A stretch of 63,533 nt of DNA, counting the filler, from Hausera hauseri (Eukaryota): the NCBI GenBank assembly GCA_046269625.1. It is 11 parts of 11 records of this genome, joined end to end, with 100 filler letters (N's around TTAATTAATTAA, not from the genome) between each part and the next. Parts side by side here need not be neighbours in the genome. Positions count along the whole stretch, not along the records: positions 10,217 to 16,465 come from JBJURY010120318.1; 10 more parts are not named here. One strand, 5' to 3'. Below the pieces are notes generated by a model, which worked only from the letters and a program-made list of their open reading frames with translations, made no database searches and was not told the origin of the DNA. Both the position numbers and the translations under genes were made by a program. Position 1 is the stretch's first letter, and the number at the start of each line of letters is the position of its first letter. Shown in pieces: positions 1-27,245 of the stretch.

Positions 1-343
1 ACAGACATTTTCAATCAGAAAGGTGGTGTATGTGTCTATAAACAAATTCGAAAATCGACAACATGATTATAATAAAAATGAAGAATTTCCAAAAAACGAT
101 TGTTAAACGTAAACTTACCAAACGGGTGTCCGGCGGCAAGAAACGTGTATCAAAACGAACCACCGCTACAGTCAAGCAATTAATCAATTCTGTGCTTTGT
201 CGAACAACAAATGTAGCAGCTAAACGCAAATTACCGTCACAGTGGCAACGGTTGTAAACAACTACGTCTTGTCAACATCAATACGTTCAAAAAATGCGAT
301 TCAAACGTAGTCCGCCGTATTTTATTGATTTTTTAAAGCACAT

Positions 344-616: not shown

Positions 617-724
617 TATAAACAATGACGGTAAGTATATGATTAGGTGATATGGGTGCATGGTTTTCATCATTTTGTCCCAGTTTACCGAATCTTTCAT
701 TAACGTTTCGTTCTAATTGCTGCA

Positions 725-1784
725 ATGCAAACAAAAACGACATCATCGACGACAGCGATGGGCGACGTATGGTTCGATCCGCGTCATCCTGTCGGGTATA
801 CTGGCGTCAAAAAATTGGTAAAGACTGTCAAAGAGACTTGGCAACAGACCCCACGTTGGCTGGGGAAACAGTTAGCATACAGCCTAAACAAACCGACAAG
901 AAGGCGGTTTCCAACTCGTGCATACCGTGTTTCAGGTGTAAATAACGCATGGCAAATGGATCTAATGGAAATTATTCCGTATGCCAACATCAACGATGGG
1001 CAGCGGTACGTGCTGACATGTATTGATGTGTTTAGTCGTTTTGCATGTGCAACTGCTGTCAAGTCCAAATCCGGTAAAGAGATTGCCGAGGCTGTTCAGA
1101 CACTGATACAACAACAGCCGAAGCATTTACAAACGCATTTGGGTAAGGAATTTTACATCCACGTTGCAGCGGTCTTGAAACGGTGCGGCGTAAACCACTA
1201 CTCTGTTTTCTCAATACAATGGTACACTTGCTGAACGATTTAATCGAACATTGCGCGGTCGCGTAAACAAATTCTTTACGTAGCAAGGCAACAAACGCTG
1301 GATAGATGTACTGCCGGATTTTATTCATGCATACAATCATCCGACACACCGTGGAATCAACGGAATGCGCCCAGTTGACGTAATGGATGATTTTGACATG
1401 CTGCTCTATCAAAACCGAACACCACAACGACAACAGGCAATTAAACGCCCAAAATATAAAATCGGGGCTTACGTACTTATTCCGAAAATAAGTACGATGC
1501 CATTCATTAAGAATTTCAATCAGAACTGGATCGACGAGGTTTTCCGCATTTCGGCAATCAACACAAAACAAACACCTGTTATGTACGTTTTAGAGGATGA
1601 AAATGCTGAGGAAATACGCGGCAAATTTTACGAACAGGAACTGCAAGTATTACCGGAAAAACCTGATGTATATAGTATTCAGGAAATTCTACGTTCACGT
1701 GGCAAAGGTTCGAATAAACAATATCTCGTCAAGTGGCATGGATACACTGCACCGAGTTGGATTTTTGCATCACAGATTCAATGA
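725..1784 (+). pseudogene. Polinton rve integrase with C-terminal chromo-like domain (frameshifted)
   Basis: WQMDLMEI...YVLTCIDVFSRFA, LQTHLGKEF, AERFNRTL in the shifted frame, FNQNWIDEVFRI, IRGKFYEQELQ, and the chromo-like YSIQEILRSRGKGSNKQYLVKWHGY. Confidence 0.9.
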
Positions 1785-2728
1785 GCAGCAGCAGTAGCAT
1801 TTACTTGGTATTTGATAGTAACAGATCATGATCACAACATGACGACGACAATAACGCTAAACAGTTTACCATACACTTGGACCAACCGGTCGATTTACGC
1901 CACGGAGACTGGGAAGTGGCTTTTACGGAATTCATACATTTTCACCAATGAAAATACGTCAGAACAGTGGTATTTACTTTACCCGACAAGAAACGTACCC
2001 TATTTCAAGTCGTTTGCGGACAATCCGACACAATAACCGATATACTCTTCGCAATTATGCGCGACAACATTTCTCGGTTTATGCTTATTTTTCAAACTAC
2101 CGTATGAAACTAATACATCGAAATCCCATTGAAATGCAGTTTAATTCCATAGCTGATGCTCGGGCATGGGGTTTTCAATCAGTCAATGTACATTCAAGAC
2201 GTCTACAGCTAGGTGGCAATGTTATAATTGGAGAAAAAATGGGCCTTTCATTTGCGTGAGTACGTCAAGAAAACGGTTACATTAGCTGTAAAGATATGTG
2301 AAATAAACGCAGATGATCATATTTCGATTATACTACCTGACAATGTAACATATATTGCATTTGATGAATTATTGGCTCGGAATCTGGGTTTTCAAAACGC
2401 AAATTCTATAAAAACATTGCTGGACAATCTATTGTTGCAAAATACAAACCGCAACTCTAGGGAGCATTTCATAGAATTAACCGAATCCGTACTCATTGTT
2501 GGAGAACGTAAACAACTACTCGCTTCTCTCGAACTGGATTCTGACACGTACAAAACATAGGGTAAAACTGTTTGCGTTAATATTCTCAGACCCAGGTACT
2601 TATAATTGTCTCACAATACTGCGCACAGTATTTCCGTGTATATGCTTGATGCATTTTTGGAACCCATTACATTTCAGTTTGGGTCAACGACACATTTGAC
2701 GTTACATTTTCGACGTCGTCGTCGATAA
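1781..2728 (+). pseudogene. Penton/minor capsid-like protein, copy 1 (largely missed by the ORF track)
   Basis: Manual translation from ATG 1781 gives MSSSSSIYLVFDSN..DDNNAKQFTIHLDQPVDLRHGDWEVAFTEF; the C-terminus is EPITFQFGSTTHLTLHFRRRRR* (TAA 2726-2728). Both are Polinton penton terminal signatures. Internal stops are present. Confidence 0.75.
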
Positions 2729-2765
2729 TAAACAAACTGCATAATTATCATTGACATCATTGTGA

Positions 2766-3788
2766 ATGAGTATTTACATGGTGTTGCCGAGCAATTGTTG
2801 TCCGACGACTTGTCCGAACAATTCCGCCAGTGAACACGTTGTAGATTGTAACAATCCTTTGGATTTACCTGGAAAATGGGAGGTTGCACGGACAAAATTT
2901 AACTTTCTCTACGCACCAGTGACATTAAAAGGTAGTACAAAAATAACGTACAACAATATTGTTACTGAAACCAAAACATATTCTTGTCCTCTGACACTTA
3001 CTGACAATAAAATAACAATTGAAGAATCGGCCATTTACACGACCAGTACAAATTACGGATTATACGTCAAGATCGGTGCTTTTATATTATCTTTGAGTCC
3101 TCTGATATGGCGCAGAAATTTGGATTCAAAAATATAGAATAAGAAATTAAAGATATTAAAAGTGAATATGCAGTTGCTCCAGAATTAAATCCCGTATATT
3201 ACCAGACGACGGCGACATTTGCCTATACAGTACAAAGGGTGCCAACATCATACGTATCGATTGGAGACTGTCTATTGCGAATATGTAGCACACCTCTGTC
3301 AACAATTTTCTTCAAATCAAAAGTACAAGGCGATATTTAAAGTTTTCGAGTCAGATGCAACTGGCTACATTAAATTTGAACTGACTAAGGATATTGTTGA
3401 CATTTCATTGGACAAAGTTTTGGCCATCGTATTGGGTTTTGAAAAACAGCGGTTTGAGGCATCGACGAATACGAAAACGGCGGCGGTACATGTTGCAATA
3501 CTCAAACCCAAACTGAAAACGGGAATAAGTCAAATGCACATTTACGTGAACGTCACCGACCCGATTTTGATGGGTGGAATACGTGCATCGCTACTCCGTG
3601 CAATTTATCGGGAACGCAGCAAGTATACTGCTGGGGACAATGTCACTGTCAAGCTCGATAATCAAATGTACATACATGTGACATCTACATCTATAAAGAA
3701 TGCTGAAGTGAATATCCAATGTGAAGCGGGCTACCTTATGGAATTTCCGTACAATACCACAACCAGTCTAACTTTTAATTTCCGTTAA
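2766..3788 (+). pseudogene. Penton/minor capsid protein, copy 2
   Basis: N-terminus MSIYMVLPSN...NNSAS...NPLDLPGKWEVA; C-terminus MHIYVNVTDPILMGGIRASLLR...MYIHV...IQCEAGYLMEF..TTSLTFNFR*. Frameshift near 3100-3220. Confidence 0.85.
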
Positions 3789-3795
3789 ATACAAC

Positions 3796-4102
3796 ATGAT
3801 TGATTCTGAAATAGTTTCCATTTACACTAAACCCCAGGCAGGCGGTGAACTGCCGTATTTCGCCGGCAAACAGTATGGTTCTAGATGGTTGCGTTAATTG
3901 CCACGCTTAGCATTTCCAGTGTTGAAGCGTGTTGGAGCCGTGGCAGCAAAAACATAACAGGATGTACTATATGAAAAAAACGATTTTGCCATCAGTGAAG
4001 GAACACGCCTGGTCAGAAATAAAAAGCGCTGCATCGGGAGTCGTTGAATTAGTCAAAAAACATTTCGTTGTCAGTGGCTTGAGAAAACGAAAACTTGGTT
4101 GA
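3796..4102 (+). pseudogene. Small Polinton core-like protein with QxGG motifs
   Basis: Manual translation MIDSEIVSIYTKPQAGGELPYFAGKQYGSRWLR*, located between penton and major capsid as in Polintons; disrupted. Confidence 0.55.
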
Positions 4103-4152
4103 TCAGCTAGCTTTTTAACTATAAACAAACGTCGTCGTCGTACGATTTTCGA

Positions 4153-4885
4153 TTGATTGACATACAAATCACATGTCCAAAATCTGAATTGTGCATATTT
4201 TACAAAGGTGCACCACAAGTTGTTATTGACAATGCGGCATTTGAAGAAATCTACCCTGTTGATTCGGTTTCAACAAACGAAAATATTGGCATTCAATTTA
4301 ACATTATGGAATCGGACAATGAATATCTCGATTTGAACGATACACTGCTCTATGTAAAAGTCATTGTTATAAAGGATTTGTCAACGGTTCTCCCTGCAAA
4401 AGACACTATCACACCGACCAATTACCTTTTCCGCGCATTGTTCCAGGAAGCTTCACTGACTCTAAACAGCGTCAAAATCGAAGGCAACACCAATCTATAC
4501 AGTATCAAAGCACTCATTTAAACGACTCTGAATTACAGTTCAGACGCGGAAAGTACTCATTTGACGAAAACCATAGGATGTGACGCCACTGAAGCAAATT
4601 GTCAGGAATGGGTGGCAGAATCAAAAAAACTTACAATGTGTGGACCACTGTACTGTGATTTTTTTCGATCAGCCGAAATACCTACTGGCCGGTGTTAAAG
4701 TCATGATTCGGCTCAAACGCAGCGACAATGTCTTTTATTTGAAAACTGCGTTGCAAATCTCAAATCCATACTGAAAATTACCGAGGCACCATTATATGTA
4801 CGTTGAGTAAAGATAGAATCATCTGTGCTCATGGGACATCGATTGGACTTGGAAACACAAAATGCCTGTTACCCGATACAACGCA
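4153..4885 (+). pseudogene. Polinton major capsid protein (double jelly-roll), N-terminal part
   Basis: KSELCIF...PQVVI...EEIYPV...IQFNI..SDNEYLDLNDTLLYVK, NYLFRALF, FFDQPKYLLAGVKVMIRLKRS match the KSELDLF-type Polinton MCP; runs into the contig end. Confidence 0.9.
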
Positions 4886-6682: not shown

Positions 6683-9178
6683 CGGTTAAACTCTGTTAGG
6701 GGTACTCAGATACTCCAGGCAATGCAAACTTTAACACTGTTTTTAAGTGTGATGTGCATAAGATCTGGAACTTTGTGACTTTTCATATTACATGTAGGAC
6801 ATTCGTTTAGCATGTTAATTGAAACTTTGCATATGCGTTTATTGGACAAATTCCTTGTGTACAGCAGTAAACTCTACTTGGGGTACTGTCATACCCCAAC
6901 ACAACAAAGATAATTTGTGGCACTATCTTTGATAAGTTGCATCAAAAATTTTGTTATTAGGTTACTTGCTAATTATCATATAAAAGCGGTAACAGCTTTC
7001 ATGTCTATTCTGAGTGTGCTGTTATGTGTGCAGTTGTTTGGTTTTCAAAAATGACAAGTTCATTCAGATAACAACAAAACAAAAAATATTAGTTGCTAAT
7101 TATTCATTCTGTACCAAATTCTCTTCAAAAAGGGCATGGCAACAACTACTTTCATGCTTGCATATGTGAATGTGTGGGTGTGGTGGCTGGTTTGGCCGTG
7201 TCACACTTTATGCGTGAGTCATTTATTGCAGTTCAATTTCCTTCAAACATTTTACTGACAAAATTTTTGATTGCATATCTTGATCTTCCTACTACACAAA
7301 ATGCAACGCAAAGGGTTGTTTTCAGCATTAGAAATGTTGATGAACGATTCGGATGACAATGACCAAAATCTGAGCGACGACGAGGACTATGTTTTGCCTT
7401 CCAATAATCTTCAACCTATGATGAGCAGTAGCAGCGATAGTGACGAGACAGATGAAAGTGACAGTGATGGGGATGACCAACAAAATGCAACAGCTGAGAT
7501 CTTCACTGCTCCTTCTGGACGACGTTGGATATCAGCACAACATGGTAATAACGTCGGACGACTGCAACAGCGTAATATTGTTCGTCATCGGCCGGGTTTT
7601 CTTCAAGGAATCCAGTCTACTACCGAAAAGGAGTCATTTGATATATTCACAACAGAGATTATGGAAGAATTGGTCCGTTTTACAAACTTGGAAGCGAGAA
7701 GACAGTGTGGCTTGACCAAATGGCTGAATGACATTTGGAGGGATGTGGATTTGATAGAAATGCATGCTTTCATTGGAATTCATATTCTTTGCGGTGCCTT
7801 CAAAAGTCATTATCGTGATGTCAAAGAACTATTTAGTGAGCGTGATGGAATTCCAGCCCTCTATGCCGCAATGTCTCTACAGCGATTTGAATGCATTCGA
7901 AAGGTTTTCCGTTTTGATGATCGCCTAAGACGTGATCCAGCTGATACCCTTTCACCAGTTCGTTTTGTTTGGAATTTGGCAATCAAGAAATTTCAGGAAA
8001 TTTATAAGCCGGAACCAACAGTAACAATAGATGAGCAGCTTGTGGAATTCCATGGTCGAGTCCATTTCCGTCAATACATACCGACAAAACCAGGTAAATA
8101 CGGAATAAAAATTATTTGGCTTGTTGATTCAGTATCTACCTATGCTTTGAATGGAATTGTATATGTCGGTGCTGGCACTTTGAAACCTGATGAGTATCCT
8201 ACTCATCAGTTGGCAGAGCGAACAACATTGAAAATTCTTGAGCCTTACTTTGATAGCGGAATCAACGTCACATGTGATAACTGGTTTACAAGCTGTCCAC
8301 TTTTTGACAAATTAGCAGAAAAAAATATTACCGCCGTGGGAACATTGAGACAAAATCGGCGTGACATACCAGCTATTGCCAAGGAAGTCAAAAACAGGCC
8401 TCAAGGATCTGCATTGTATTATCGCAATGACAAGAATTTACTTCTATCTTACATTGACCGCAAGAAATCTAAACCAATTTTACTATTGTCCACAATGCAC
8501 AATAATCCATCTGAACCTATTGCAGATACAAAACCCGAAATTATACAATTTTATAATTCCACGAAATCGGGCGTTGACAACCTCGTTCATCTTGTCCGTT
8601 TCTACAGTAGCAAGCGCAAGACTAGAAGATGGCCGTACAGCTTCTTCATGAATCTGATTGATGTAATTTGCCTCAATGCTTACATTTTATATAAAAATAA
8701 TCACCATTCTACTGTGCGGTACAACTATTTGAAAGCTCTAGCCCTTCAACTACTACACCAACAAATGAAACGTCGCTTAGTGGATCCAATGAATAATCGT
8801 ATCAAGTCAGCTCTAACTTTGTTTGTTGACCTTCCTCAGACAGTTATGACAAATGCTACTGCTACAAAAAGGGGCCGTTGTCAGCATTGTCCCAGATCGT
8901 TAGATAAGAAGACAGATATACAGTGCAGAAAATGTAACAATTTTCTCTGTGCTCAACATCGGATCACTATTTGTGCAACATGCTACAATAATTCTGTTTA
9001 ACTGTAAGTCCGCTTAATTACACTTAACAATGCTAAGTTATTCTATGAACTTTGTGCTTACATATTTATTATATGACTGTTTGATCTTATAATCGTTAGA
9101 AAGTTTCAGTAATACGTTGGGGTATACCCATACCCCAAACAGAGTTTACTAAATTAAAAATTTTCCAGAGTTTAACCG
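6683..9178 (+). mobile_element. Complete piggyBac DNA transposon (~2.5 kb)
   Basis: TTAA at 6679-6682 and 9179-9182 flank perfect 13-bp TIRs CGGTTAAACTCTG (6683-6695) / CAGAGTTTAACCG (9166-9178); ~35-bp subterminal inverted repeats at ~6866-6900 and ~9116-9150; one long transposase ORF. Confidence 0.95.
7301..9001 (+). CDS. piggyBac transposase (uninterrupted, ~566 aa from first ATG)
   Basis: Acidic N-terminus; TIDEQL, YIPTKPGKYGIKI, VTCDNWFTS, GTLRQNRR, YNSTKSGVD, RRWP; C-terminal Cys-rich domain CQHC...CRKC...CAQH...CATC. Confidence 0.95.
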   Translation: MQRKGLFSALEMLMNDSDDNDQNLSDDEDYVLPSNNLQPMMSSSSDSDETDESDSDGDDQQNATAEIFTAPSGRRWISAQHGNNVGRLQQRNIVRHRPGFLQGIQSTTEKESFDIFTTEIMEELVRFTNLEARRQCGLTKWLNDIWRDVDLIEMHAFIGIHILCGAFKSHYRDVKELFSERDGIPALYAAMSLQRFECIRKVFRFDDRLRRDPADTLSPVRFVWNLAIKKFQEIYKPEPTVTIDEQLVEFHGRVHFRQYIPTKPGKYGIKIIWLVDSVSTYALNGIVYVGAGTLKPDEYPTHQLAERTTLKILEPYFDSGINVTCDNWFTSCPLFDKLAEKNITAVGTLRQNRRDIPAIAKEVKNRPQGSALYYRNDKNLLLSYIDRKKSKPILLLSTMHNNPSEPIADTKPEIIQFYNSTKSGVDNLVHLVRFYSSKRKTRRWPYSFFMNLIDVICLNAYILYKNNHHSTVRYNYLKALALQLLHQQMKRRLVDPMNNRIKSALTLFVDLPQTVMTNATATKRGRCQHCPRSLDKKTDIQCRKCNNFLCAQHRITICATCYNNSV

Positions 9179-10216: not shown

Positions 10217-12930
10217 CTTAAGAAAAAGCCTGGCTCCAATGAGGAAATAGATTTAGAAGATCAAAAGATGCCGAAATGGTATCCTCCTCCACATTGGTTA
10301 AGACCGGAGATAAAAAAAGAAAGTAGAACGAATGTTAAAGGCCGACATAATTAAATCGAGCTACCGATCATGGTACTCCATATACTCATGATTAAGAAGA
10401 AAGGTACTACGAAGCACCCATTTTGTATCAATTATCGAGCGTTAAACACACTTATGATAAAAGATTCATTTCCACTACCATCGGAAAAAGAAGCCCTAGA
10501 TAGGCTTTCCGGAGCAAAATGGTTCACCACACTTGATCAACAGTCTGGATATTGGCATGTAGAGATAGAGGAAGAAGACCGCTATAAAACTGCGTTCAAA
10601 ATGCACTACGGTGTTTACGAATTCAACGTCATGCCATTCGGAATAACTACGGGACCTGCTATTTTTCCCGAATGATGAATAAGATGTTAATGGGACTAGA
10701 ACACGCGTTCGCATATCTGGACGACGTAATGGTTGCGTCCAAAGTGGAAGAAAAACATCTAAAGTACATTGAGGACATACTCATGGGGATAGAACAAGCC
10801 GAATTAAAATTGAATCTCAAGAAATGTAAATGGGCTCAAAACGCTGTGTCTTATCTCGGACATATAGTTGGAGAAGGAGGATAAAAGCCGTATAAATCAC
10901 TGTTGAGTAAGATATCATATTGTATGGAACTTCCAAATTCGAAAGAGTTAAGACATTGGTCAGGCTTGTGCGGATATTACGCCACTTATGTACCGGACAA
11001 TTCAAAAATAAATGCACTCTTGTATCGCTTACTTAAAGGGGATTAAATTAAAATGGACTGATGTTGAACAAAAGGCTTTCGACGAAAACATGAAAATCTT
11101 AACTAGCGAACCCGTTTTAAGATATCCTGATTTTAACCTACCGTTCATAATTAAAACGGATGCAAGCAAAGAAGGCATTGACTACGAGTTAGCTCAAAAG
11201 CGAGAAGAAAAAGAATCGGAACATCCGATTGCATACGGAGGAAGATCACTAAAGAAAGCTGAGAAGCATTATTCTGTTACAGAATTAGGAACGTTAGCTG
11301 TAAAAGAAGCTCTACGACACTTTAACGTATACGTCTACGGACAGAAGATTATAATTGTTACGGATCATAAAGAAGTTACAACATTTAAAGGCAGAGCAAA
11401 TAGTCCGACATGCAGACTCAACAGATGGATCAAAGAGATCTCACGATTTAATATTGAATTTCAGTACAAACCCGGATGCAAACATGTCTATGCCGATGCG
11501 TTATCAAGACTCAAAACCAAAACAAGCGCGATTACCATAATGGGAAAGCTCAGCTAGAAGAATGAGTGGATAGAAAACTGATTCTAACAATGGATAAAAC
11601 AATTAAAAATTCTACCAAACAAAAGAATGACAAAATTATACATTAAATCATCGAATTTGTTGGAAAAAATATAACGCCAAAGGGTCACCAACTACGAAAG
11701 CATTTGCAAAGACATGGTCATAAATACTGCGCAACAGGAGACACGAACTGCGGAAACGTATTGCATTATGAACGGAAAGGACGAAAATTAGTAGTCATAC
11801 CAAAAGGACTACGTACAGAAGTACTAATTGCCGAACACAACTCTTATTTAGCCGGACACGTCATGGAAGAATACATTAGAAAGAATATTAAAGAAGTATT
11901 ATTGGCCGAGCATATATATCGATGTAAAGAATTTGATGAATGCTTGTGAAGTATGCGCAACCAAACAGAAAAAGTAAAAACTATATTCCCGAACTTAAAC
12001 CAATAAACGTGCGGACAGACCAATGCAAGCAATGTCCATGGATATTGTAGGACCGTTACCTACAACTCACAAAAATAATAAGTATATTCTAACACGTGTA
12101 GATCAATTAACCCATTTTGTCGAGCTTATAGCATTAATGGACCATAAGGCCGAAACTCTAGCAGAAGCCGTAGTAAGGAAGATTATCTTTAGACACGGAC
12201 CTCCTGAACAAATTTTGACAGACCGAGAAAGAAACTTTACAAGTGAGTTCTCTGAGTAAATTACCAAAATATTCGAGATTGAACGATTAACCAAAACAAA
12301 CGATTACCATGCAACGGATTGGTTGAACGAATAAATGCAACAGTTATACGTATCTTATCCACCATGGCTAAGAAGGACCAGAAAGATTGGGACGAATTTT
12401 TAGAGGGCATATAGTTTGCCATAAACACTACACCACATCCTGCAACAGGATTTACTCCATTTATTGTGATGTGCGGCACAGAAGATGTAATACCCACGGA
12501 TTTAGGAATGATACCATATCAGTGAAAACGGAACAGTTAGAGCGAAACTTTGTTGAAGTATTACAGATGAGACTACATAAGTGTTGGGAAATATCCAAAG
12601 AATTATCTAGAGAATATCAAGAACAATTCTAAACGTAACACGACACGAATGCTAAATTACACGACCTAGAACAAGGGAATTGGATATATGTGCACTATCC
12701 AGTAGCGAAGAAAGTTCCATCTTTGAAACTTACCCGAACAGGCAGAGGACCATACGAAGTTATCAGAACCACGCCAGCTACAGTTTATATTAATGGAAAT
12801 GACAAGGAAGAAGTCGTATTAATACAAAGAGTGATTAGAACGGAAATAAGACCGAACAAACGCTATAATCTGCATTCGGACAGAGAGAATCCGAGACTAT
12901 CCAAGCAAGAAGGGAAAACGTCACCTATAG
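10217..12930 (+). pseudogene. Gypsy pol: reverse transcriptase, RNase H, integrase
   Basis: FTTLDQQSGYWHV, VMPFG, FAYLDDVM; KTDAS, YSVTELG, VTDHK, ADALSR; H..YLAGH, SMDIVGPLP, ILTD, NGLVERIN; GPY module; order RT-RH-IN; many stops. Confidence 0.95.
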
Positions 12931-12941
12931 CCACAAGACCG

Positions 12942-14240
12942 ATGTCATATGTACAAATAGTTCTTGCCTTGTCATTAATCGCCTCGTATATGCCAAGCGT
13001 AAGATCAATAACCCTGACCGAGAAACGGCAATATGCACAAAGACGTAAGGATATGCAAAACTTGTAGTCACTTAGAGTATACGATATGGATTTGAGCAAA
13101 CCCTGTGCCTGGTTCAAGGCAAGCGAATTGGTTAAGAACCACGTAAAGTTTCAAATAATATTTATGAATAGGATTGGTGTCGAGATGAAGACGTGTGATT
13201 TTCCGTATGGAACCTATCAGAAATGTTGCGACTTAGATTTTGATTAAACGTATAGATATAAACTTTAAATGTTCTATTATAACCTGCACGGAGTCCAGGC
13301 CTACATAATTACCGAATTTGAAACAAAAATGTCCCAACGAGACGATGCGAACAAAGCCAAAACAGACAAAATAATCCTGAATACCAACCTAGAATACCGA
13401 CTCCTACATTTTAACATTATTGGGATCGAAAAGTACTTCCAGAACCATTGTATTCGAATTAAGATTAAAATAGAATTGCCAGGAGATAGGCAAACCTCCA
13501 TTCGGTTCATACCATCGAACGTTTCAATCCCATCCACAGAGTATTGTTATATTGCACGACGCCGATCTACTACGTTCTGTAGACTGCCGTTAGGACACGA
13601 TTACCAATTGCAACTTGATCTGTATAATACTTATCCAAAGGAACCAAGTACATATCTGAGAGGATACCTCCCAAGGGTTGAAATATAGAAACTTCCACTT
13701 CTAACAACTACGAGAAAACCGTCTAATATTCCGAGTACGACTATTGCCACTGCGATAATCACTTCGAGTGAAATACCCGAGCAAGAATTGAGGAGTATAC
13801 CAATTAAGGTATTGACGCAAAATAATAAAATTTTGTTTTATGCAGAAGAATTGATAAACTACGAAATTAAAATTGAATGCCGAACCTTGCACACTAATCA
13901 AATCGTAATTTTAAAAAACAATCGAAAAATCGAATGTAAATCTTTGCGGCCGCAACACGATTATGTGATCCGAATTACTGCCAAGGGTCGAAGACCTGAA
14001 ATTTTCACGGTGCGGACTCGTCATGACGAATCAAGAGCAACGCGATATAAAGACCTTAGTACCCGTAATGTGCTTACTACAAAAGGGCATAGTGAGGCAA
14101 ATAGTTTACCGATAATAACTATATTTGGTTTTTCAACTTTTATTCTTGTCATATTAACAGCGACGATTTTCTTAGTTTCCAAAAACTGTAATAAACAGAG
14201 TAAAAATCAACAGAGGAATAAACGGGAAAAGGGATCGTGA
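12942..14240 (+). pseudogene. Type I membrane protein (signal-like segment, three FN3-like repeats, S/T-rich linker, TM) in frame after integrase
   Basis: MSYVQIVLALSLIASYMPSVRS; repeats CCDLDFD*TYRYKL, FCRLPLGHDYQLQL, CKSLRPQHDYVIRITA; TTTRKPSNIPSTTIATAIITSS; TM IITIFGFSTFILVILTATIFLV. ORFs at 12690, 13269, 13788 and 14391 share one frame. Confidence 0.6.
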
Positions 14241-15618
14241 GACGGGCTTTATGATAGTATAACCTGACAATTACAATCAGACAGAGGAACTAAAGTAAAA
14301 GACACGTTTCCTGACGTTACCGGAATTACGAAACTACAACTTGCGAAAGGCAAAGATTTCCTAGAAATCCAAGAAGATATAAGCCACGGCTTGTATGGAT
14401 TTATTATAATCGGATTCAGAGTACATGAAATGCTAGTAAGGCTAGGGATTAGACAAGAGTGCATAGCTGGAATTCGTGAAGTAAAATGCGTCGTTTGTAA
14501 AACGCGTGGAAAACACCCTAATGAGGTAAAGAGGATATCAACTTCCCTTAGAGTCACGAGAATCACAGTTTAAGATGATGCTTGAAGCCATGAATGGCGA
14601 ACAATTTAGATTTCATAAGTTAATGATAGCAAACAAACGCACGAAACCAATAAGAGATATTTACATATCGCTACGATGGAAACACGAGTGGAAACTCAAA
14701 AACCCTACACAGAATGTAATCTCTGACAGTAATCCAAAAATCTTAATGCAGAAAATCCGTAAGGGGTTTAGTAAATACCCGATATCTAGACATATTGAAC
14801 CCCAAGGGCATAATAATTTCCAAATAACCGTTCAAAACAGTCCAACCAAACCATTCAAACCAGAAGGACCAAATAAGTACAACCAACCCTTAATCGATCG
14901 AGTCTAAATTAAGTACAGACCGGCTGAAGAATTACGAAGACGAAAAAAGACGAAACCATCATTCTTTGAGTATATAAGCAAGAAGAAAACCAAGACAAAT
15001 AAAAACTGTGCTGAAGGGATAAAACCGTCCACTAGCAGCCTAATGCTGACGGCCAAAAAAGAAATGATAGAATCCAAGGACAAACTGAAAACGCCAGAAC
15101 ACGGAAAAACTACCGGACGAGGAACAGAAACGATCAGTTGCGGATCACTTAGAACGGAAGTAAACATTCTCCGAAGAAATTGGGAACAAACAGCCCCTAT
15201 CGTGGTAACCGAGTTCGGTCAGATTAAAGAATACGCCCAAATGTTGGTTATGGCCGAATATTATAGCAGAGGAAAAATTAAAGAAGCCATGTTTTATGTC
15301 ACCACCGTTCCTAGAAGAATCGTAAGTGGAAACGGATATGCCCGAGAGGATGTAACCATTGGCCGATACTTAGCCCCAATATCCCAGTCGAAAAATGGTA
15401 CCAATAGATTAACCATCCTAGTAGATACCCAAGTCCTAGTACGACTTAAAAGGCAGTACAAGAAAACCGGAATACCCGACTTAGACAAACAAGAAATCGT
15501 TGAATGGACGTTAGTCACCGTGTCAGATGACCCTAAGAAAAGTTCTATAGACCCCAAACATAAAGGATATACGGATATCTATACCAAGATAAAAAGGGAC
15601 TGGTATTCGAACGAATAG
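14241..15618 (+). pseudogene. Uncharacterised accessory coding region of the retroelement
   Basis: Co-oriented ORFs 14391-14573, 14575-14907 and 15043-15618 (last two in one frame) with the same A-rich codon style as pol; no family recognised. Confidence 0.5.
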
Positions 15619-15661
15619 AAGTTGATGCAAACCTCGTAGACATTGATGGGGTGAAAAAGAA

Positions 15662-15800
15662 GAATGTCCCGTGTGTGATGCAAATCTTATCAAGAATTTG
15701 TGGCATTAGATAACAAAGATTTCACCCATATATATTGCCGTTATTGCTTAGAAACGTGGACCATAAGAAATGAAATAACTACTCCCAAGTTTGTAGAGCC
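15662..15800 (+). pseudogene. Degenerate C3HC4 RING finger
   Basis: Across two frameshifts: ECPVC...EFVALDNKDFTHIYCRYCLETW...YSQVCRAE; two Cys ligands appear mutated (TTC; TAC/TCC). Confidence 0.55.
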
Positions 15801-16120
15801 GAAGCTACAAAACTGAGATATTTCTCTAACGGAGAAAGTAAAAGGATAGTGGAAATATTTCTTCAAAGGGCCACCACATTATACCACTTTGACAAACAAT
15901 CACCCCGAGATGAATTAAATTCGGAAACGGACTTACGCGGACGAATGAACCATCCACGCGGCACCTCTTCTGACGCAATTGGCACATACGAGAGTGCCGT
16001 TCAGGGAGAAATGTTGTAAAAGAGGCAAAAAACGTTGTAGAAAGAACAAGGAAATGTATAATAGAAACCAAAACCGAAAGTAAAACGGAATTTAACAAAT
16101 AATTATTTAACCAGAAATTA

Positions 16121-16465
16121 TGTAACGATTACTTAGTGCATGTAGTTATTTAATTTACAACGAATGTGAAAATTGTAAATCAAATAAATAAAGCAGATTA
16201 AGGCACACAAATGACCACAGATATATATATATAGTGATCGAATTGAAAGAGAAAAGGTTTGTGGAGTACAAATCGTATTAAGTCTAAGCAAGCAAAGCAG
16301 AGATATACTATTAAATCAAGCGACCTAATTTATCAGTTTTTCCGACGAAAGTCCGTGTCGAGGAACCGGACCGATATTTCGAAATTGTAGAGATTGATTT
16401 CGAATTATTCTTGTTGATTGCCGACCCTACGATTGTACGTAAGGTATTTTTGTTATTGTAAATAA
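16121..16465 (+). repeat. Probable 3' LTR (partial)
   Basis: Non-coding tract starting TGTAACGA just after the last ORF, containing AATAAA and a TATA-like run; no second copy in the window and only a weak polypurine tract. Confidence 0.4.
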
Positions 16466-16565: not shown

Positions 16566-19500
16566 TGCTGTCAGCCATGCATGAAATTTTGGAATGATAC
16601 CCCCAATGGTTTTTTAAGCACATGAAAGATTCTGGAATGTGGGAATGCTAGCCTTAAAGGTTGGCGACCTATGAGAGACAATTTATACAAATACTTGTAA
16701 TTGAGCGATGCGCGAGAGTCTGTAATGAGAGCCCCATTGGTTGATTAGCCATGCACGAGATTCTTTAACGATAACCTCAGTGGATATTGAGCCATGCGAA
16801 AGTTTCTGGAATGATAGACCTAATGGTTGATGAAACATGCTCCACAATCTGGAATGATAGTTCCATTGGTTGTAATGCATGCGCCAGATACTGGAATGAC
16901 AGCTGAAGTTGATAGTGAGCCATTACTCCACATTTTGGAATGATAGCTCCATTGGTTGTAAGGTATGCGCCTAAAGTGAGCCATGCGCGATATTCTGGAA
17001 TGATAGTCCCAATGGTAAGATAAGATAAGGTCTCAACCACTGTTGAGAAATTTTGTGGGTGAGCCATGCGCGAGATTATCGATTGCTATCAACCATGCAT
17101 GAAATTTTTAATCATACCCCTAATGGTTGGTTGGCCTTGTTCCGCATTCTTGAATTACATTCCCAATGGTTGTTTTCTTGCGAGAGATCCCAGCATGATA
17201 ACCACAAAGGTTGGATATCCGTGCGAGAGAACATAGGTAGTTTAATTGGTTGATTAGCCATGCGCGATATACTGGAATTATAGCAGCCCATCCGGAATGA
17301 TACCCCCAATGGATTTGTAAGAATATAAAAGATTCTGTAATGTGGAAATGATAGCCTTAAAAATTGGCAAGCCATGAGAGGCAATCTAAACAGATATTTG
17401 TAATTGAGCCATGCGCGAGAGTCTGTAATGAGAGCCCCATTGGTTGATTAGCCATGCACGACATTCGGGAACGATAGTCCCAATGGTAAGATAAGATGAG
17501 GTCTCAACCACGGTTGAGAAATATTGTCTGTTTACATTTCTGCCCTGCTTGATGAGAAATGTGTGAGATTATGGAAAGGTTGCCCAAGTGCTTACTGAGT
17601 CATTCACGAGATCCTGGAATGGTAGCCCCAATAGATGGTGAGTCATGCGCAAGATTCTAGAATGATAGCCCCATTTGTGGGTGATGCATGCGCGAGATTA
17701 TCGATTGCTATCAGCCATGCATGAAATTTTAGAATGATACCCCCCAATGGTTTTTTAAGCATATAAAAGATGCTGGAATGTGGAAATGATAGCCTTAAAG
17801 GTTGGCAAGCTATGAGAGACAATCTAGACAGATATTTGTAATTGAGCCATGCGCGAGAGTCTGTAATGAGAGCCCCATTTGTTGATTAGCCATGCACGAG
17901 ATTCTTTAATGATAGCCTTAGTGGGCCATGCGAAAGTTTCTGGAATGATAGACCCAATGGTTGATGAGTCTTTCACGAGATTCTGGAATGATAGCCCCAG
18001 TGGATGGTGAGCCATGTGCGAATTTCTGGAATGATAATCCCAATGGTTTTGTAAGCATATAAAAGATTCAGGAATGGGATTGCCCTTAAAGGTTGGCGAG
18101 CTATGATAGACAATTTAGACCAATATTTGTAATTGTTAGTGAGCCATGCGCGAGAGTCTGTAATGATATGGTTGATTGGGTGATGCATGCGCGAGATTCT
18201 AGAATGATAGCCCCATTTGTGGGTGATCCATGCGCGAGATTGTCGATTGCTGTCAGCCATGCATGAAATTTTGGAATGATACCCCCAATGGTTTTTTAAG
18301 CACATGAAAGATTCTGGAATGTGGAAATGATAGCCTTAAAGGTTGGAGAGCTATGAGAGACAATCTAGACAGATATTTGTAATTGAGCCATGCGCGAGAG
18401 TCTGTAATGAGAGCGCTACTGGTTGATTTAGCCTTGCACGAGATTCTTTGAACGATAGCCTCAGTGGATAGTGAGCCATGCGAAAGTTTCTGGAATGATA
18501 GACCCAATGGTTGATAAGACATACTCCACATTCTGGAATGATAGACCCAGTGGTTGTAACGCATGCGCGAGATACTGGAATGATAGTCCGAATGGTAAGA
18601 TAAGAATAAGGTGTTTATTCATCCAGGGTTGAGAAATATTGTCTGTTTACATTTATGCCCTGGTTGGTGAGAAATGTGTGAGATTCCGAAATGGTAGCCC
18701 CAGTGCTTGCTGAGTCATTCGCGAGATTCTGGAATGAGAGCTCCAGTGGATGGTGAGCAATGTGCGAAATTCTGGAATGATAGTCCTTATGGTTTTGTAA
18801 GCATATAAAAGATTCTGGAATGTGGGAATGATAGCCCTTAAAGGTTGGCGAGCTATGAGAGATAATTTAATAAAATTTAATGAAATTTTAGAATGATACC
18901 CCCCAATGGTTTTTTAAGCATATAAAAGATTCTGAAATGTGGGAATGATAGCCTTAAAGGTTGACAAGCTATGAGAGACAATCTAGACAGATATTTGTAA
19001 TTAAGCCATGCGCGAGAGTCTGTAATGAGAGCCCCATTGGTTGATTAGCCATGCACGAGATTCTGGAACGATAGCCGCAGTGGATAGTGAGCCATTACTC
19101 CACATTTTGGAATGATAGCTCCATTGGTTGTAAGGTATGCGCCTAAAGTGGATGGTGAGCCATGCGCGATATTCTGGAATGATAGTCCCAATGGTAAGAT
19201 AAGATAAGGTCTCAACCACTGTTGAGAAATATTGTCTGTTTACATGTATGCCCTGCTTAGTGAGAAATGTGTGAGATTCCGGAATGGATGCCCCAGTGCT
19301 TGCTGTGTCTTTCACGAGATTCTGAAATGATAGCGAGCCATGCGAAAGTTTCTGGAATGATAGTATTAGTTTATGGTAAGCCATGCGCGAAATTCTGGAA
19401 TGATAGACCCGATGGTAAGATAAGATAAGGTCTTAACCAGGGTTGAGAAATATTGTCTGTTTACATTTATGCCCTGGTTAGTGAGAAATGTGTGAGATTC

Positions 19501-21491
19501 CGGAATGGTAGCCCCAGTACTTTCTGAGTCATACACGAGAGTCTGGTATGATAGCCCCAATAGATAAGTGAGCCATGCGCAAGATTCTAGAATGATAGTC
19601 CCATTCGTGGGCGATCCATGCGCGAGATTATCGATTGCTATCAACCATGCATGAAATTTTGGAATGATACCCCCGATGGTTTTTTAAGCATATGAAAGAT
19701 TCTGGAATGTGTAAATGATAACCTTAAAGGTTGGCAAGCTATGAGAGACAATCTAGACATATATTTGTAATTGAGCCATGCGCGAGAGTCTGTAATGAGA
19801 GCCCCACTGGTTGATTAGCCATGCACGAGATCTTGGAATGATAGCCATAGTGGTAGGTGAGCATGCACGAGACTCTCGATTGATAGCCAAAACTGTTGGT
19901 TTCACGCATTGCTCCCCATTCACGCAGGCTCAACAACCACTGGGTTGGCTAACCATCTATTGATGCCATCATTCCAGAATCTCGTGCATGTCTCACCAAT
20001 CACTGGTGCTATCATTACATGTAGCACATGGCTCACGATTCCTTTTAGCTATCAATCCAGAATTTAGGGTATGTCTCACCATCCGTATGGGCTATCATTC
20101 CAAAATCCCGTTCATGGCTAATCAACCAGTGTGGTTATCATTCCAGAACCTCGTGCATGAATCATTCCAAAATTTCACGCATAGTTTACCATCCACGCAC
20201 GGCTCAACAACCACTAGGGCTATCATTCCTGTATCTCGTGCATGCTTCAAAACCATTGGTGCTTTATAAACCATTGGGGCTAAAATTCCAGAATCACGCG
20301 CATGTCTCACAACAAGCATGGCTATCATTTCAGAATTTCATGCATGGGTCACCAACTGTTAGGGCTATCAATCGAAAAATCAATCGCATGGAACACTAAA
20401 CAACTGAGGCTATCATTCTAGAATGTTTCACATGGCTAACCAACCATTGGAGCTATCATTATAAAATTTAACGCATTCCTCACCATCCACGCACGGCTCA
20501 ACAACCACTGGAGATATCATTCCAGAATCTCGTGCATGGCTCACCAACCATTGGGGCTATCGTTAAAGAATATCGCGAACGGCTCACCAACCATTAATGA
20601 TATCATTCCAGCATCTCGTAAAAGGCCCATCAACCGTTAGGGCTATCATTCTAGAATTTTGCGTATGGTTCGCCAACCACTTTAGCTATCATTCCAGTTT
20701 CTCACGAATGTCTTACAACCATTGGTGCTATCATTCCAGAATGTGGAAAGTCCCATTCCAGAACGTCGTGCATGGATCACCAACAGTTGGGGCTAATAGT
20801 CCAGAATCTCTCGCTCACCAACCAATGGAGGTATCATTCCTAAATTTTACGAATTGATCACCATCTACGTACGGCTGAACAACCACTGGTGCTATCATTC
20901 CAGAATTGGCTTACCAACTATTGATTCCATCATCATAGAATTGGCTTAAAACTATTGATGCTATAATTCCAGAATGTAGGGAATGTCTCACCATCCATTG
21001 GAGCTATCATTCCAGATGCTTTCGCATGGCACAGTATTCACTGAGGCTATCGTACCAGAATCTGCTCATGATTCAGCAAGCATTGCCACTATCATCTCAG
21101 AATCTTGCGCATGGATCACCCACTGATCATTTCAGAATCAGACGCATGTCTCATGAACCAATGCAGATATAGATCCACATTCTCACACATGTTTCACCAA
21201 CCAATGAGGCAATCATTCCGGAAACTCCCGCATGACACTCCAAGCATTGGCTCTATTATTCCTGTTTATCATGCATGGCTCATCAACCGTTGAGGCCAAC
21301 GGAATCTCACTCATATCTCAACAACCATTGGTTCTATCATTCTAGAATGTCTCGCATGGCTCTCTAACCACTGGGGCTATCATTCTAGAATCTCACGCAT
21401 GGCTCACCAACTATTGGAGTTATCAATCTAGAATCTCGCTCATGCTACGTTTGTGCGAAATTTTTTAACGATAGTCTTAATGGTTGGTGAG
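16566..21491. repeat. Satellite array, ~43-bp monomer with higher-order structure
   Basis: Consensus approximately CCATTGGGGCTATCATTCCAGAATCTCGCGCATGGCTCACCAA; runs in reverse orientation 16566 to ~19900, forward ~19900-21445, then reverses again. Confidence 0.92.
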
Positions 21492-21591: not shown

Positions 21592-24314
21592 TATCCGGCT
21601 AAATATGAATCATGTTCGGCCATGAATACTTCGATACGCAATCCTTTCGGAATAACTATTAGTCTTCTTCCTTTTCGTTCGTAATATAAGATATTATCTT
21701 GATTCGATGCGCAATATTTATGTCCGTGTTTCTGTAGGTGTTTTTTAAGTTGTCGTCTTTTTGGCATTTTGTCGTTTTGTACAAACTCGATGATTTGTTG
21801 TATAATTTTGTCTTTAGCTTGCTCAGCTGTAATTCTAATCGTCTTATCCAATATTAGCGTTCTTTGTCGTTCGATCAGTTTTTCAAGTTGTGGTTTCTTT
21901 ATTTTGGTGATTGCGCTCGTTTTTGTCTTTAATCTTGACAATGCGTCGGGGTCGATATGTTTGTTGCCCGGTTTATATCGAAATTCGATGTTATATCGTG
22001 AGATTTCCTAAATCCAACGATTTAGTCTGCATTTTGGGTTATTAGCTCTTCCTTTCAATGTCGTAACTGCTTTATGGTCGGTTACTATTATAATCTTCTG
22101 TCCATAGACATAGACGTTAAAATGTCGAAGTGCTTCCTTAACAGCTAGCGTTTCTAGTTCGGTAACTGAATAATTCTTTTCTGCTTTCTTCTCCGAGCGT
22201 CCTCCATAGGCTATAGGATGTTCCAGCTCTTTATCTTCCCGTTTTTGAGCTAATTCATATCCTATGCCCTCTTTACTTGCATCTGTTTTAATGATGAATG
22301 GTAAGTTAAAATCAGGGTATCTTATAACCGGTTCGCTTGTTAGGATTTTTTTCATTTCATCGAATGCTTTTTGCTCAACGTCTGTCCATCTTCATTTAGT
22401 TCCTTTCTTGAGTAGGCGGTATAGTGGTGCGTTAATCTTCGAGTTATCTGGTACATAAGTGGCATAATACCCACATAGGCCTAACCAATGTCTTAACTCC
22501 TTTTGATTCTGTGGTTCGATACAATCAGATATTTTATTTAACAAAGATTTGTCCGGCCTCGATCCTCCTTCTCCTACTATATGTCCGAGGTATGATACTG
22601 CGTTCTGTGCCCATTTGCATTTCTTTGGATTCAGTTTTAAACCTACTTGTTCCAATCGTATGAGCGTGTTTTCAATGTCTTTTAAGTGTTCGTCTTCTAT
22701 TTTCGATGCTATCATCACGTCGTCTAAGTACGCGAATGCATGGTCCAATCCCATAAACATTTTTTTCATCATTCTCGTAAAAATAGCTGGTCCTATGGTG
22801 ATGCCAAAAGGCATAACATTAAATTTGTATACGCCATCGTGTGTCATAAACGCTCTCTTATATCGGTCGTCCTCTTCGATTTCTACCTGCCAGTATCCCG
22901 ATTGCAAGTCGAGAGTGGTTAACCATTTTTCTCCTGATAGTCTGTCTAAAGCTTCTTTTACCGATGGTAGGGGAAACGAATCCTTCATCATAAGAGTATT
23001 TAATGCTGGATAGTCTATACAAAATCGATGTTTTGTGGTTTCTTTCTTTTTAACCATAAGTATGGGTGAATACCATGATCGGTAGCTCGGCCGAATTATA
23101 TTGGCTTTCAACATTCGCTCTACTTCCTTAGTTATTTTTAGTCTCAATGAATGTGGAGGTGGATACCACTTTGGCATTTTCTGTTCCTGTAGATCGATTT
23201 CATCGTTCAAGCCTGGTTTCTTCCTTAATGGAATTGTTAGTTTCAAGGTCTTAGCTCTACCTATATCTTCCTCGTATTGTGCAATTATCGAACTGTGTTT
23301 ACATAATAATTCGTAAAACCTGCAGTATGCCTCAGGAGAAAATTTGGTTTCGACGTAAGGTGGAAACTCTGCGTACTTGTATGGTTTTTCTTCTATTGTT
23401 ATTGCTGATACCCTGCAACTGTGACCTAACGTAGTGTTATCGTGCAATTTCACTGTTGTTAGTGCATTGTTCACTAATCTAATGGGTATCCGTCCCGTTA
23501 CTACCCTACAGAGAATATTACTAAGCATGAGATTTGGGTCGATATCCTCTTGAGGTTCAAAATATACGGGCAAATCGTGATCTTGACGAATCTGTGCAAA
23601 AATTATCATTTCAGTCCTGGACGGAATGTCCTCGTCTACTGGAATCCATACTTCGACTGACTTCCTTTCCTTTATTACTTTTGTCCCTTTTATTGATTCG
23701 AGCTCGAGTAATTTTTTGCTATGCAAATCGATTGCTAAACCTGGTATCTGTTTTAATACTTCACAACCCAGTACTAAATCATCTGTTAATTGGTCCATTA
23801 GGGCAAATTCGTGTTGAATTGCTTGACCCATTATATAGACGATAGGAGTCAATTTGAATTTTGGCTTCGATATTTGTCCAAATGCTCCTACACTACCCGG
23901 ATCCGATGACAACGGCGTACACAATTGTTCCCGTAATGTGGTGGGTATCGATTCGTACTTTATAAACGATTTTTCCGATCCCGTGTCAATTAAGGCATAC
24001 ACTTCCCAATCTTCGATGTGTATTTTAGCGAAGGGCCTCCCTTCTACCACTGTTCCGACACCATTGGTTGTCATTTTTGGTTGTTTTATAGTAGAGACTC
24101 TATGCCCGTTTATTGTTATTTCTGGCGACGAAACGATATTTTCTCTTAGTTGTCCTAGTTCTGCGCTTGGATATAAATTATTATTTGCCATTTCGCTGCT
24201 ACGGCTGTCGATGAGCGATTCTTGGCGTAGTGAACCTGGGATTGAGCATAGTTTCGGATTCTCCCAGATCGTTGATTTCGATTCTATATGACGAGGTATC
24301 CTTTTGGAATACAA
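21592..24314 (-). pseudogene. Gypsy pol: aspartic protease, RT, RNase H, integrase N-terminus
   Basis: VYALIDTGSEKSFI; HRFCIDY, LTTLDLQSGYWQV, VMPFG, FAYLDDVM; KTDAS, YSVTELE, VTDHK; EHDSYLAG. Confidence 0.95.
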
Positions 24315-24338
24315 TATCCCGTGGTCGTTTTGTGTTGG

Positions 24339-26555
24339 TCATTGATTGCTGACGTTCATTTTCCATAATACTCCGTATTGTTTCGTTTTTTCATATGGAT
24401 CTTCATAATTAATAGGTTTTTGATCGATTTTGGACTTACTTGATGCGATTGACGTACGGTCAAAGTCTTCATATATTGGTGCTGTTGGTGGTATTATGGG
24501 TAATGGCACGTTGATCACTGAATAAATTTTGCGCATCTTGTTCCTGGAACTTCCTTTTCCTCCCTTAGGCTCATCATCATCTGAATTATCCCTTCGTGTT
24601 GTTGTTTTCTTCGTTTTCCGTCTATACAGAATCGAGGGCCTTCCTCGTCGTTTACGATTGTAATATCCAACGTGGCGTTCTATGTCATTTCTACATCGGT
24701 TTTCTTCATAAGCTTTAAGCATTTTGCCAAAGGGTGTGATAATTTCGGTCAAGATTTTGCAAGAAAATTTTGTTAAGGTGAATATTTCATACCCATTTAT
24801 AATGGCTTGGATTATTGCCTTAACTAACTGGATTAGAAAGTAAATAGCTAAGAATCCAGATGCGGCCTGTCTGAAAATTAGAAATCTTTCCCAGATCTTA
24901 TATAGTATTTCTGAGGTTACTCTTTGATAGTGATTAGCACCTAATAGCGATTCCCATTTTGTTTGAAAGCGAGTATTATCTACAACCATCGACATGGCCC
25001 GATTTAGTTCATAAGTTCTTTGTCGCGGAAATGCTAGGAACTGTCTAAAGGCTTCTATGTCCTTCGGTCTATAAATTCCTTTATTGGTTGTATCTTCGAA
25101 TTTTTCTTCCGATAGTCCTTTTATTAGGTTGGTTCCAGTTAGCTTGCTTGGGGCTGTAGCGGCGCCTCCATTGGGCAAGCTTATCCAGTCTGTTCCACTA
25201 CGGCGAAACATAGGTTCACCCAGACTCGTTTTTCATTCCTTCAGTATTGTCGGTTCCGTCGAGTTGGCGAACAGTACCCTGGTAAGAGGCATCGCTAGCC
25301 TTGGCATATTTTCGTAGATAACTGGTAATTCCTGCATACATCTATTTTCCTCTACATTGATCGGTACGTCTCTTTTCTCGCACTCGTAAGTTAATAGAAC
25401 TTCCCCAGTAACCCGTCCAATGACACCTTCTTTCATTAGTACAATTGGTGACGCCAATTCCGGGTTGGCACAAATTAAAGCTAGTTTGGTTCTCATGACT
25501 TCAGTGTCTAATCTGCAGTCATTCATTAACATCTTGTGGTATAGTTCTGCTATTCCGGTTTGTCAATTATAATAAAAGTAATCATCCTGGTTCTTGAGGT
25601 AATCTTCAATCCGCACGTCTTGTGTTTTCAAATCGTACGTTTTCATGTTAATTTCAGTTTCCGCTACGAAGAATGCTTCGTAGTTGGTGGAGTACATCAT
25701 TAAGTCGCAACGTGTTAACATATCTTTCGGAATGAATTTTAATCCATGTGTATACGACATCAATATCGTTGGTGTAGGCTGTTCTATTACATCTTCCCTC
25801 GATCTCGTATAAGTATGTAATTTATTTGTATACCGTTTTTCGGTCGTTTTATTAAACTTTATCTCCTTGATCCTAATAAAATAGCATTCTCTCTTCAAAG
25901 GTGGACTTCATACGATAACTGAACTTTGGAACGTACATGCGCCATCCTGAATGTGACATTTTTGATTCTCGGTAAATAGTTTAGTAACGCTATGGGACAT
26001 TGCTTTTAGATATCTTAATTTGGTTTTGAAAAAATCTACGACTACTATTCCTCCTTCCTTTCCTTTTCCGGTATCGTATTAGGCTCCGACACAATAGCCT
26101 GTGTGCATGTTTAATTTTCCTACTGCCACTTTGTAGGCTCTAATTATTTTCCCTCCTTATGCTTCTAACTCCATGCCGTTCCAAACCATTTAACCAGTTA
26201 ACCGGGCTCCTAAACAATGCTGCCTATCTACGTTCATCGGAATTAATGGTGTAGTTGGTTTGATTATTGAAGAATNNNNNNNNNNGAATGACCGTGCGTG
26301 TTACCACAATGAAATACGCTGCGAGATCTTCGTATCATGCATTCTATTGCCTCCATTGCGATTAGTTCTCGTTGTTGATATAATATATATTTCCCTTCCA
26401 CTGTCTCGAGCTTGTGGGGTCGTGCGTCTTCACATGTTTCTAAGTCCATCAAAGAATATTTCTGACCCACTTTGAATTTATCGCAATCATATACAGTAAC
26501 TGCTCCCATCTGCTTTACCAACATCATTACTGTCAGTAAGTTGATTAACCAGTTG
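24339..26555 (-). pseudogene. Chuvirus-like (class III) envelope fusion glycoprotein
   Basis: Hydrophobic leader, then VTVYDC...YSL...C, LYQ...ECMIRRSRSVFHCG..GH; CRL..EV..TKLAL..ANP....M.EG..G...GEV...Y.C...CMQELPV...PLTRVL; GIY...D......LAFP; W..F..F..AASG TM ...IINGY. This order matches chuviral G proteins and their retroelement-captured homologues as I recall them. Confidence 0.8.
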
Positions 26556-27245
26556 TATTCGTTTCCTTTGTTTGGTATAATATTTCGCATCATATCCTCT
26601 AGATTATTGGTCCTTTTGTATTGTCTTCTTTTTCGAATAACTTAGTCCATTTTATTTCTTTTGGTATTCTTCTTGCGGCTTTACTTGCTAACCCGATTGT
26701 CTTGTCGAATTCATTTTTCCGAAGAGGGTTAGATCTTACTGCTAGATATATCAAGACTTTCCTCAATTCTTCTATTGTATTGTATATCATAATTCTGTTG
26801 CTTACTGCTTCGTCAGGGAGGGTGCTTTTAGTTCATTTAAATCGCGACGTTTTCATCGTCCTAGCTATATTATATATTAGTCTTTCTTTCTCGGTCAGTA
26901 TGTCGCCTTGGAGTCCGGTATAATTAACTATCCTAATCAGGTCTTTCATTGGTTCGATTATTTCTTCATTATCTGAACTCGAAGTTGGTACCGATAGCTG
27001 CCTTAATTCCCTAATAAGGTCTGCATTATAATCACTTTTTTTATTTTTCTCGGTCTTCCGACCGGTCATTTCGGCTTCGTCGGGAGTAAGGTTTCACTTA
27101 GAGGAACTAAGTCTTTATCGTATTGTGGGTTGTCATTATCCGTTTGTAAGTATTCGAAATACATTGCAGCGTCCTGAATTCCCATCATTTTTCCAACGCA
27201 GTGCTCTATATGCGCCTTCCTTATGGCTTCATCTTTGGTTTGCTC

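Follow-up and report, generated by a model that had tools for sequence, protein, structure and literature searches.

A decayed gene for an FN3-like type I membrane protein in frame behind integrase, from a Ty3/gypsy family with a gB-type fusogen ahead of pol

A decayed gene for a type I membrane protein lies at 12942-14267 (+) of the window, by which is meant the whole 63,533-nucleotide stretch of Hausera hauseri DNA that was analysed, and continues the reading frame of a Ty3/gypsy pol from the C-terminus of its integrase. This copy of the element is dead. We regard as real the finding of a once-functional FN3-like type I membrane protein behind integrase, with two relatives, in a Ty3/gypsy family whose gB-type env precedes pol. 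Comparison across contigs makes it probable that the fusogen and the FN3 gene belong to one element. The role that we put first, with confidence just short of even, is that of a second envelope protein that is translated as part of the fusogen's polyprotein and would aid attachment, in an element of an invertebrate-like animal genome.

The window is not a single locus; it consists of 11 pieces joined via N/TTAATTAATTAA spacers. The FN3 gene sits within the piece 10217-16465, which starts inside RT and continues through RNase H to integrase, every one of them disrupted by stops and frameshifts (Table 1). Pfam identified RVT_1 in two frames (E 2e-14 and 7e-11) and RT_RNaseH_2 (E 8e-30). The GPY motif was identified by eye in the integrase C-terminal region, where Pfam gave no match; GPY/F is a hallmark of gypsy integrases (PMC12440569). 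The PR-RT-RH-IN order of Ty3/gypsy elements is found across two pieces, with RT-RH-IN in 10217-16465 and PR-RT in a sister piece. No LTR was detected as a terminal repeat common to the pieces and no Gag by a Pfam scan of the 5' frames, all copies being truncated. Identity with Troyka was considered and rejected, Troyka being without env and without GPY/F in the available text of PMC12440569. The FN3 protein (P0001) had no second match anywhere in the window.

Table 1. Features of the piece bearing the FN3 gene and of a sister fusogen copy, in window coordinates.
Feature	Position	Strand	Basis or remark
Ty3/gypsy pol RT and RNase H, broken; contig starts within RT	10217..11449	+	Pfam
Integrase zinc finger and core, broken	11864..12244	+	Pfam Integrase_H2C2 E 2e-7, rve E 6e-10
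Integrase C-terminal region with GPY (12747-12755)	12639..12941	+	101 stop-free codons, frame shared with the membrane protein
Signal sequence, probably internal to the polyprotein	12942..13007	+	Hydropathy; 14/22 residues same as P0002
FN3-like domain 1	13068..13325	+	Two internal stops, one more directly 5' at 13065; motif at 13224
FN3-like domain 2	13416..13685	+	Structural match; motif at 13578
Ser/Thr-rich linker between domains 2 and 3	13689..13784	+	Stop directly 5' at 13686
FN3-like domain 3	13785..14012	+	Pfam fn3 E 0.033; motif at 13935
Transmembrane helix	14103..14180	+	KD19 peak 2.5; in both relatives; helix in model
Basic cytoplasmic tail ending Y-x-x-I-T	14181..14267	+	Broken by TGA at 14238
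Chuvirus/gB-type fusogen, broken; sister copy on other contig	24339..26554	-	Pfam Monjiviricetes_fusion

The frame of the membrane protein holds five stops in the 442 codons before its final TGA (13065, 13245, 13266, 13686 and 14238), a shortage with P about 6e-11 against the off-frame rate of 0.081 stops per codon. Over 12639-14573 the same frame holds 7 stops in 645 codons and the other forward frames hold 49 and 55. The initial annotation had described a surface protein fused after integrase and the fusion is borne out, the frame being free of stops from 12639, via the integrase C-terminal GPY, into the signal at 12942. The gene is intronless. Its coding strand has an A content of 0.358, to be set beside 0.37-0.41 in other regions of the family, 0.37-0.40 downstream of the gene and 0.29-0.33 in four unrelated stretches.

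A signal-like stretch and a transmembrane segment had also been described and both were recovered, as an N-terminal hydrophobic stretch (KD11 2.55, a prediction by hydropathy and not by a dedicated signal-peptide predictor) and a single peak of KD19 2.5. By the same measure a signal, an ectodomain, one transmembrane segment and a tail, i.e. a type I layout, were found in P0001 and in its relative P0002. The Ser/Thr-rich linker exists (44% Ser/Thr in 25 residues, with 48% in P0002 and 60% in P0003) and is placed between repeats 2 and 3, not before the transmembrane segment as had been supposed. The end of the gene had been set at 14240 and is better moved: the window frame reads YDSIT and a stop after the TGA at 14238, and the relatives end in Y-x-R-I-T (YDRIT in P0002, YGRIT in P0003), therefore the TGA at 14265-14267 is probably the true end of the gene.

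Further frames follow the conserved stop at 14265. Long frames are present at 14268-14573 (101 codons) and 14530-15618 (+) (363 codons, one stop), A-rich like the element; these, and likewise the frame 14908-15615, gave no Pfam or Atlas match. At about 15660-15800 (+) a decayed RING-finger-like Cys/His spacing was seen by eye over three frames, with no Pfam match.

Three motif segments had been reported within the ectodomain. All three were found, the strict pattern fitting two of them and the first repeat requiring Y in the first aliphatic slot. With the pattern relaxed, three matches were reached in 0 of 20,000 shuffles, a significance that is overstated because the relaxed pattern was fitted to the window sequence; the 127,062 six-frame codons of the window contain three additional matches. 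Resemblance between the repeats within the window is minimal (z = 0.0, 1.8 and 0.3). Recent internal triplication was rejected on this ground, the window repeats not being significantly alike. Among six domain slices (P0002 domain 1 excluded) the comparison of window domain 1 with P0002 domain 2 stands out, with z 7.6 and 0 of 300 shuffles.

A beta-sandwich was predicted by AlphaFold for each of the three FN3-like repeats. The model of P0002, from a three-sequence alignment, has three all-beta domains of 7-8 strands each, a disordered linker and a TM helix, at low confidence (mean pLDDT 51.7, pTM 0.28). A second model, of window domains 1-2 with X at the stops, was likewise of low confidence (pLDDT 48.6). 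When the P0002 model was compared with the PDB using Foldseek, tandem FN3 fragments ranked first (best E 8e-11) and the 42 of 42 rows listed are chains that we take, by title or general knowledge, to contain FN3; the whole-chain TM-scores were low (0.13-0.17) because domain orientation is not predicted. The best E for the window model was 1.3e-4.

Superposition of single domains gave matches of window domain 1 with MER FN3 2dbj (Z 8.5, rmsd 3.4, 91 aligned), P0002 domain 1 with twitchin FN3 (Z 8.3), window domain 2 with the FN3 monobody 9y5y_B (Z 8.2, rmsd 2.6, 85 aligned) and P0002 domain 3 with fibronectin EDB 5n48_B (Z 8.9, rmsd 3.5, 79 aligned). A Z of 8-9 sits just above the range rated common by the superposition tool, and non-FN3 Ig-like chains come within 1 Z unit of the FN3 matches (7skn, Z 9.0; DUF3244 3sd2, Z 8.8). 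Among the structural neighbours are cytokine receptors, Torso and cell-adhesion receptors, at 2-17% identity. Pfam fn3 (PF00041) scored 14.8 bits on P0001 domain 3 and 13 bits on P0003, under the cut-off of 25 bits, and gave no match in P0002. A sequence search of the PDB returned one chance match (E 0.68) and a profile search of it none. Those Atlas feature matches that carry a family assignment were mostly FN3 single-pass proteins, all scoring below 0.9. The viral fold library yielded generic multi-sandwich matches only, mostly phage proteins (best E 4e-7), with no viral donor evident there. Overall a predicted beta-sandwich fold is well supported for the three repeats, and FN3 is likely as the specific fold class.

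The region is not unique to this copy. A phmmer search of 1,835,955,588 representatives gave two matches, P0002 (479 aa, E 1.5e-71, 35% identity, full-length and stop-free) and P0003 (189 aa, E 7.5e-35, 47% identity, spanning linker to tail), both unnamed single-member ENA entries. P0002 retains 10 of 10 Cys, the single Trp, 14 of 24 Tyr, the signal, the TM and the tail motif; that it is intact with all its cysteines at such an identity suggests that a folded ectodomain was once under selection. The signal is the best-kept segment (14/22 identical to P0002, as against 29-41% in the ectodomain), which suggests a second role for it at the integrase junction. The window Met at 12942 is absent in P0002, which fits an internal signal. 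Counter to this, the catalogue lists P0002 as a protein in its own right, whose Met lies a few residues upstream.

A host donor gene had been considered worth seeking and none was found among the 1.84 billion representatives; no named host protein was matched, therefore no donor is visible. A word-index search with P0001 gave 0 of 2232 candidates, the tool being insensitive here because P0002 was missed. Profile A1 found no fused pol-FN3 protein among longer proteins (0/5146), a weak test covering 840-2395 aa only, and in prokaryotic genomes none of 128 pattern matches was confirmed. The top ESM Atlas match for P0002 was an unnamed 433-aa arthropod cluster (166 members, score 0.88), which serves as a lead to a donor gene or to related element proteins.

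The initial annotation also placed a fusogen 5' of this pol. One is found upstream of pol in the family, on other contigs only. Monjiviricetes_fusion (PF24664) gave E-values of 9e-19, 8e-9 and 8e-18, above the cut-off in 21592-28058 and 46083-50367, and the fusogen of 56279-63533 (-) was matched by tblastn. The pieces 21592-28058 (-), 46083-50367 (+) and 56279-63533 (-), all with fusogen, belong to one family, and fusogen copies beyond that of Table 1 lie at about 47000-49205 (+) and 58900-60830 (-). The C-terminal part of the fusogen in Table 1 shares its frame with PR-RT at 22392-24338 (-). The fusogen precedes protease and RT in a shared frame; at this junction either of the first two copies is open at the other's stop. 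The fusogen signal likewise lies in an open frame with upstream sequence (56223-56981).

The piece 10217-16465 shares 74.6% DNA identity with 21594-23228 over 1646 columns of RT-RH, and its pol protein is 69-76% (RT) and 89% (RH) identical to that of the piece 21592-28058. Nine long public polyproteins are 26-40% identical to it. Pol is much closer to the fusogen piece than to the public polyproteins, therefore the two pieces belong to the same family. No single contig of the window carries fusogen and FN3 gene together; the FN3 piece misses its 5' half and the three fusogen pieces all stop short of the integrase core. A search for an intact env-pol polyprotein left 9 of 3004 candidates, all generic gag-pol at 26-35% identity, none of which fits profile A1 (best E 0.38), and PF24664 is listed for none of these nine long public polyproteins (five rescanned).

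Upstream of the fusogen, at 60937-61857 (-), 27066-28058 (-) and 46083-46439 (+), a ubiquitin-like motif (YFRGRIL.D...L.DVGI) followed by an AT-hook-like GRPRK was recognised by eye and recall; for the former, Pfam offered Rad60-SLD_2 only, at E 0.19. The piece 56279-63533 (-) contains a tandem duplication of about 4.4 kb (87% identity) that joins the C-terminal part of the fusogen back to the 5' region, leaving out pol.

Both in-frame junctions are observed, each in a different copy, along with the predicted fold; from these we infer the processing of the polyprotein. Its order in the family would be 5' domains, an internal signal, the class III fusogen, a TM, PR-RT-RH-IN, a second internal signal, the three FN3-like domains, a TM and a short tail with the Tyr motif. 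Two internal signals and two anchors would mark where such a polyprotein crosses the ER membrane. Cleavage by signal peptidase would leave the FN3 ectodomain free in the ER lumen to form its disulfide bonds, and fusogen and FN3 protein would be made one-to-one in the same membrane with Pol kept between them until freed by the protease. YxxPhi motifs have a sorting role, and the terminal Y-x-x-I may sort the FN3 protein. It could then appear next to the fusogen, either on particles or where cells touch, and bind a host surface partner, helping to target or trigger fusion.

Herpesvirus gB depends on separate binding glycoproteins, and the long ectodomain, predicted to be disulfide-bonded and mucin-linked, together with the Tyr motif would suit an attachment or triggering partner. 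Weighing against attachment, fold likeness carries no information on function, and the gB-type elements of PMC13524379 are described there with only gag, env and pol, so that a partner is not generally needed. Held more tentatively than the role as a second envelope protein is the proposal that a single polyprotein carries two unrelated envelope proteins, acquired independently, one on either side of pol: ahead of it a class III fusogen derived from a virus, and after it a triple-FN3 protein that resembles host receptors and serves in attachment or as a trigger. If true, a Ty3/gypsy element would have had a two-component entry machine like that of herpesviruses or paramyxoviruses, and its decayed 5' and 3' regions would hint at more accessory genes (ubiquitin-like, RING-like).

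The main rival retains the same architecture and has the FN3 protein affect the producer cell instead of the particle, whether as a receptor-like decoy or as a receptor-interference or trafficking factor, so that host signalling would be dampened or superinfection blocked. We consider this rather unlikely. It agrees with the receptor-like layout, with the cytokine receptors, Torso and cell-adhesion receptors among the neighbours by structure, with the conservation of the terminal Tyr motif and with Atlas matches to FNDC5, IL-11R alpha and CMV US8, which all score below 0.9 and are leads only. However, the receptor matches tie among generic FN3 folds at 2-17% identity, and neither a signalling domain nor the WSXWS box, the hallmark of cytokine receptors, is visible in the FN3 protein sequence. 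Co-translation with the fusogen would also favour co-localisation with it.

It is improbable that the FN3 gene comes from a sublineage in which the 5' fusogen was lost or was never present, the two proteins then not being partners. The contig 10217-16465 has nothing 5' of RT, and in the only three-way overlap, of about 124 nt, the two fusogen pieces involved look more alike than either does to it; the fusogen copy that has diverged furthest (66% DNA identity) has no overlap with it and is thus of no help in placing it. Against such a split, the pol of the FN3 piece is very near that of the fusogen copies, with the RH identity given above, and the fusogen is present in all three of the other family pieces in the window. 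Likewise improbable is a passively captured host receptor cDNA or an unrelated neighbouring gene with no role in the element, for although single-pass FN3 proteins are frequent among host genes, the window copy is broken and the best Atlas match is the arthropod cluster, the junction with integrase is exactly in frame, the representatives hold no host donor (two matches, both unnamed), the intact relative with all Cys implies long maintenance and the base composition agrees with the element.

The 5' fusogen and the gag-env-pol order are already published. HSV/gB-type GAG-ENV-POL Ty3/gypsy errantiviruses have been described in nematodes, bryozoans and flatworms (Chary and Hayashi, PMC13524379), where Sacco et al. 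2022 is cited as the first report of env-before-pol nematode elements. The window family shares with them a PR-RT-RH-IN pol and a chuvirus-like gB-type fusogen 5' of it. Unlike the elements in the available text of that paper, it has a second membrane protein after integrase and no recognised Gag. The word 'fibronectin' has no occurrence in the main text and 7 supplements of PMC13524379, a survey not designed for post-POL ORFs, whose authors state that other arrangements were not searched for. Surveys of env-carrying invertebrate retrotransposons assume three genes (gag, env and pol) and sought no more. If the present reading is true, env in moving upstream vacated the 3' position, which a second surface protein could then take, and the FN3 protein would be a candidate for the factor by which gB-type retroelement fusogens are targeted or triggered.

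In Atlas virus of Ancylostoma ceylanicum (Belpaoviridae) one Gag-Pol-Env polyprotein includes a GN-like and a GC-like protein, so that a division between attachment and fusion proteins has a precedent among retroelements (PMC9094657). As in the window family, membrane proteins are fused after pol, with a putative attachment protein (GN-like) separate from the fusion protein (GC). It differs in being a BEL/Pao element with a class II fusogen and with GN and GC adjacent and both phlebovirus-like, whereas the window family has, one on each side of pol, a class III fusogen and an FN3 protein that is receptor-like and unrelated to it; the FN3 topology mentioned in the available text of PMC9094657 is domain III of GC itself. 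Bdelloid rotifer elements also carry non-env genes, including small TM proteins, in the post-pol env position, but these ORF3s are GDSL, DEDDy, coiled-coil or 210-230-aa TM ORFs, and the available text of PMC5408684 has no mention of fibronectin and describes no fusogen upstream of pol.

The tandem seven-strand beta-sandwiches, L-x5-Y motif, signal and one TM are shared with animal single-pass receptors and adhesion proteins that have FN3 domains, such as fibronectin, contactin, Tie2, gp130 and Torso. Unlike these, the window protein is Cys-rich with short domains and no signalling tail, at 2-17% identity, and the PDB and representative-protein searches found no sequence-level relative among them. 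No report of a retroelement FN3 membrane protein after integrase was found among the freely accessible papers searched.

The remaining pieces of the window are transposon and repeat DNA, as is usual for an animal genome. An uninterrupted 576-codon ORF at 7271-9001 (+) is piggyBac transposase-like by eye. Polinton/Maverick-like remnants with integrase, capsid-like and polymerase-like frames, labelled by eye, lie at 1-4885, 35685-36619 and 45047-45982, two of these pieces having 939 nt in common at 84%. A diverged 43-bp satellite with higher-order structure fills 16566-21491 in both orientations, and 50468-56178 (-) holds a second, unrelated decayed Ty3/gypsy-like pol, 27-32% identical to the RT of the family.
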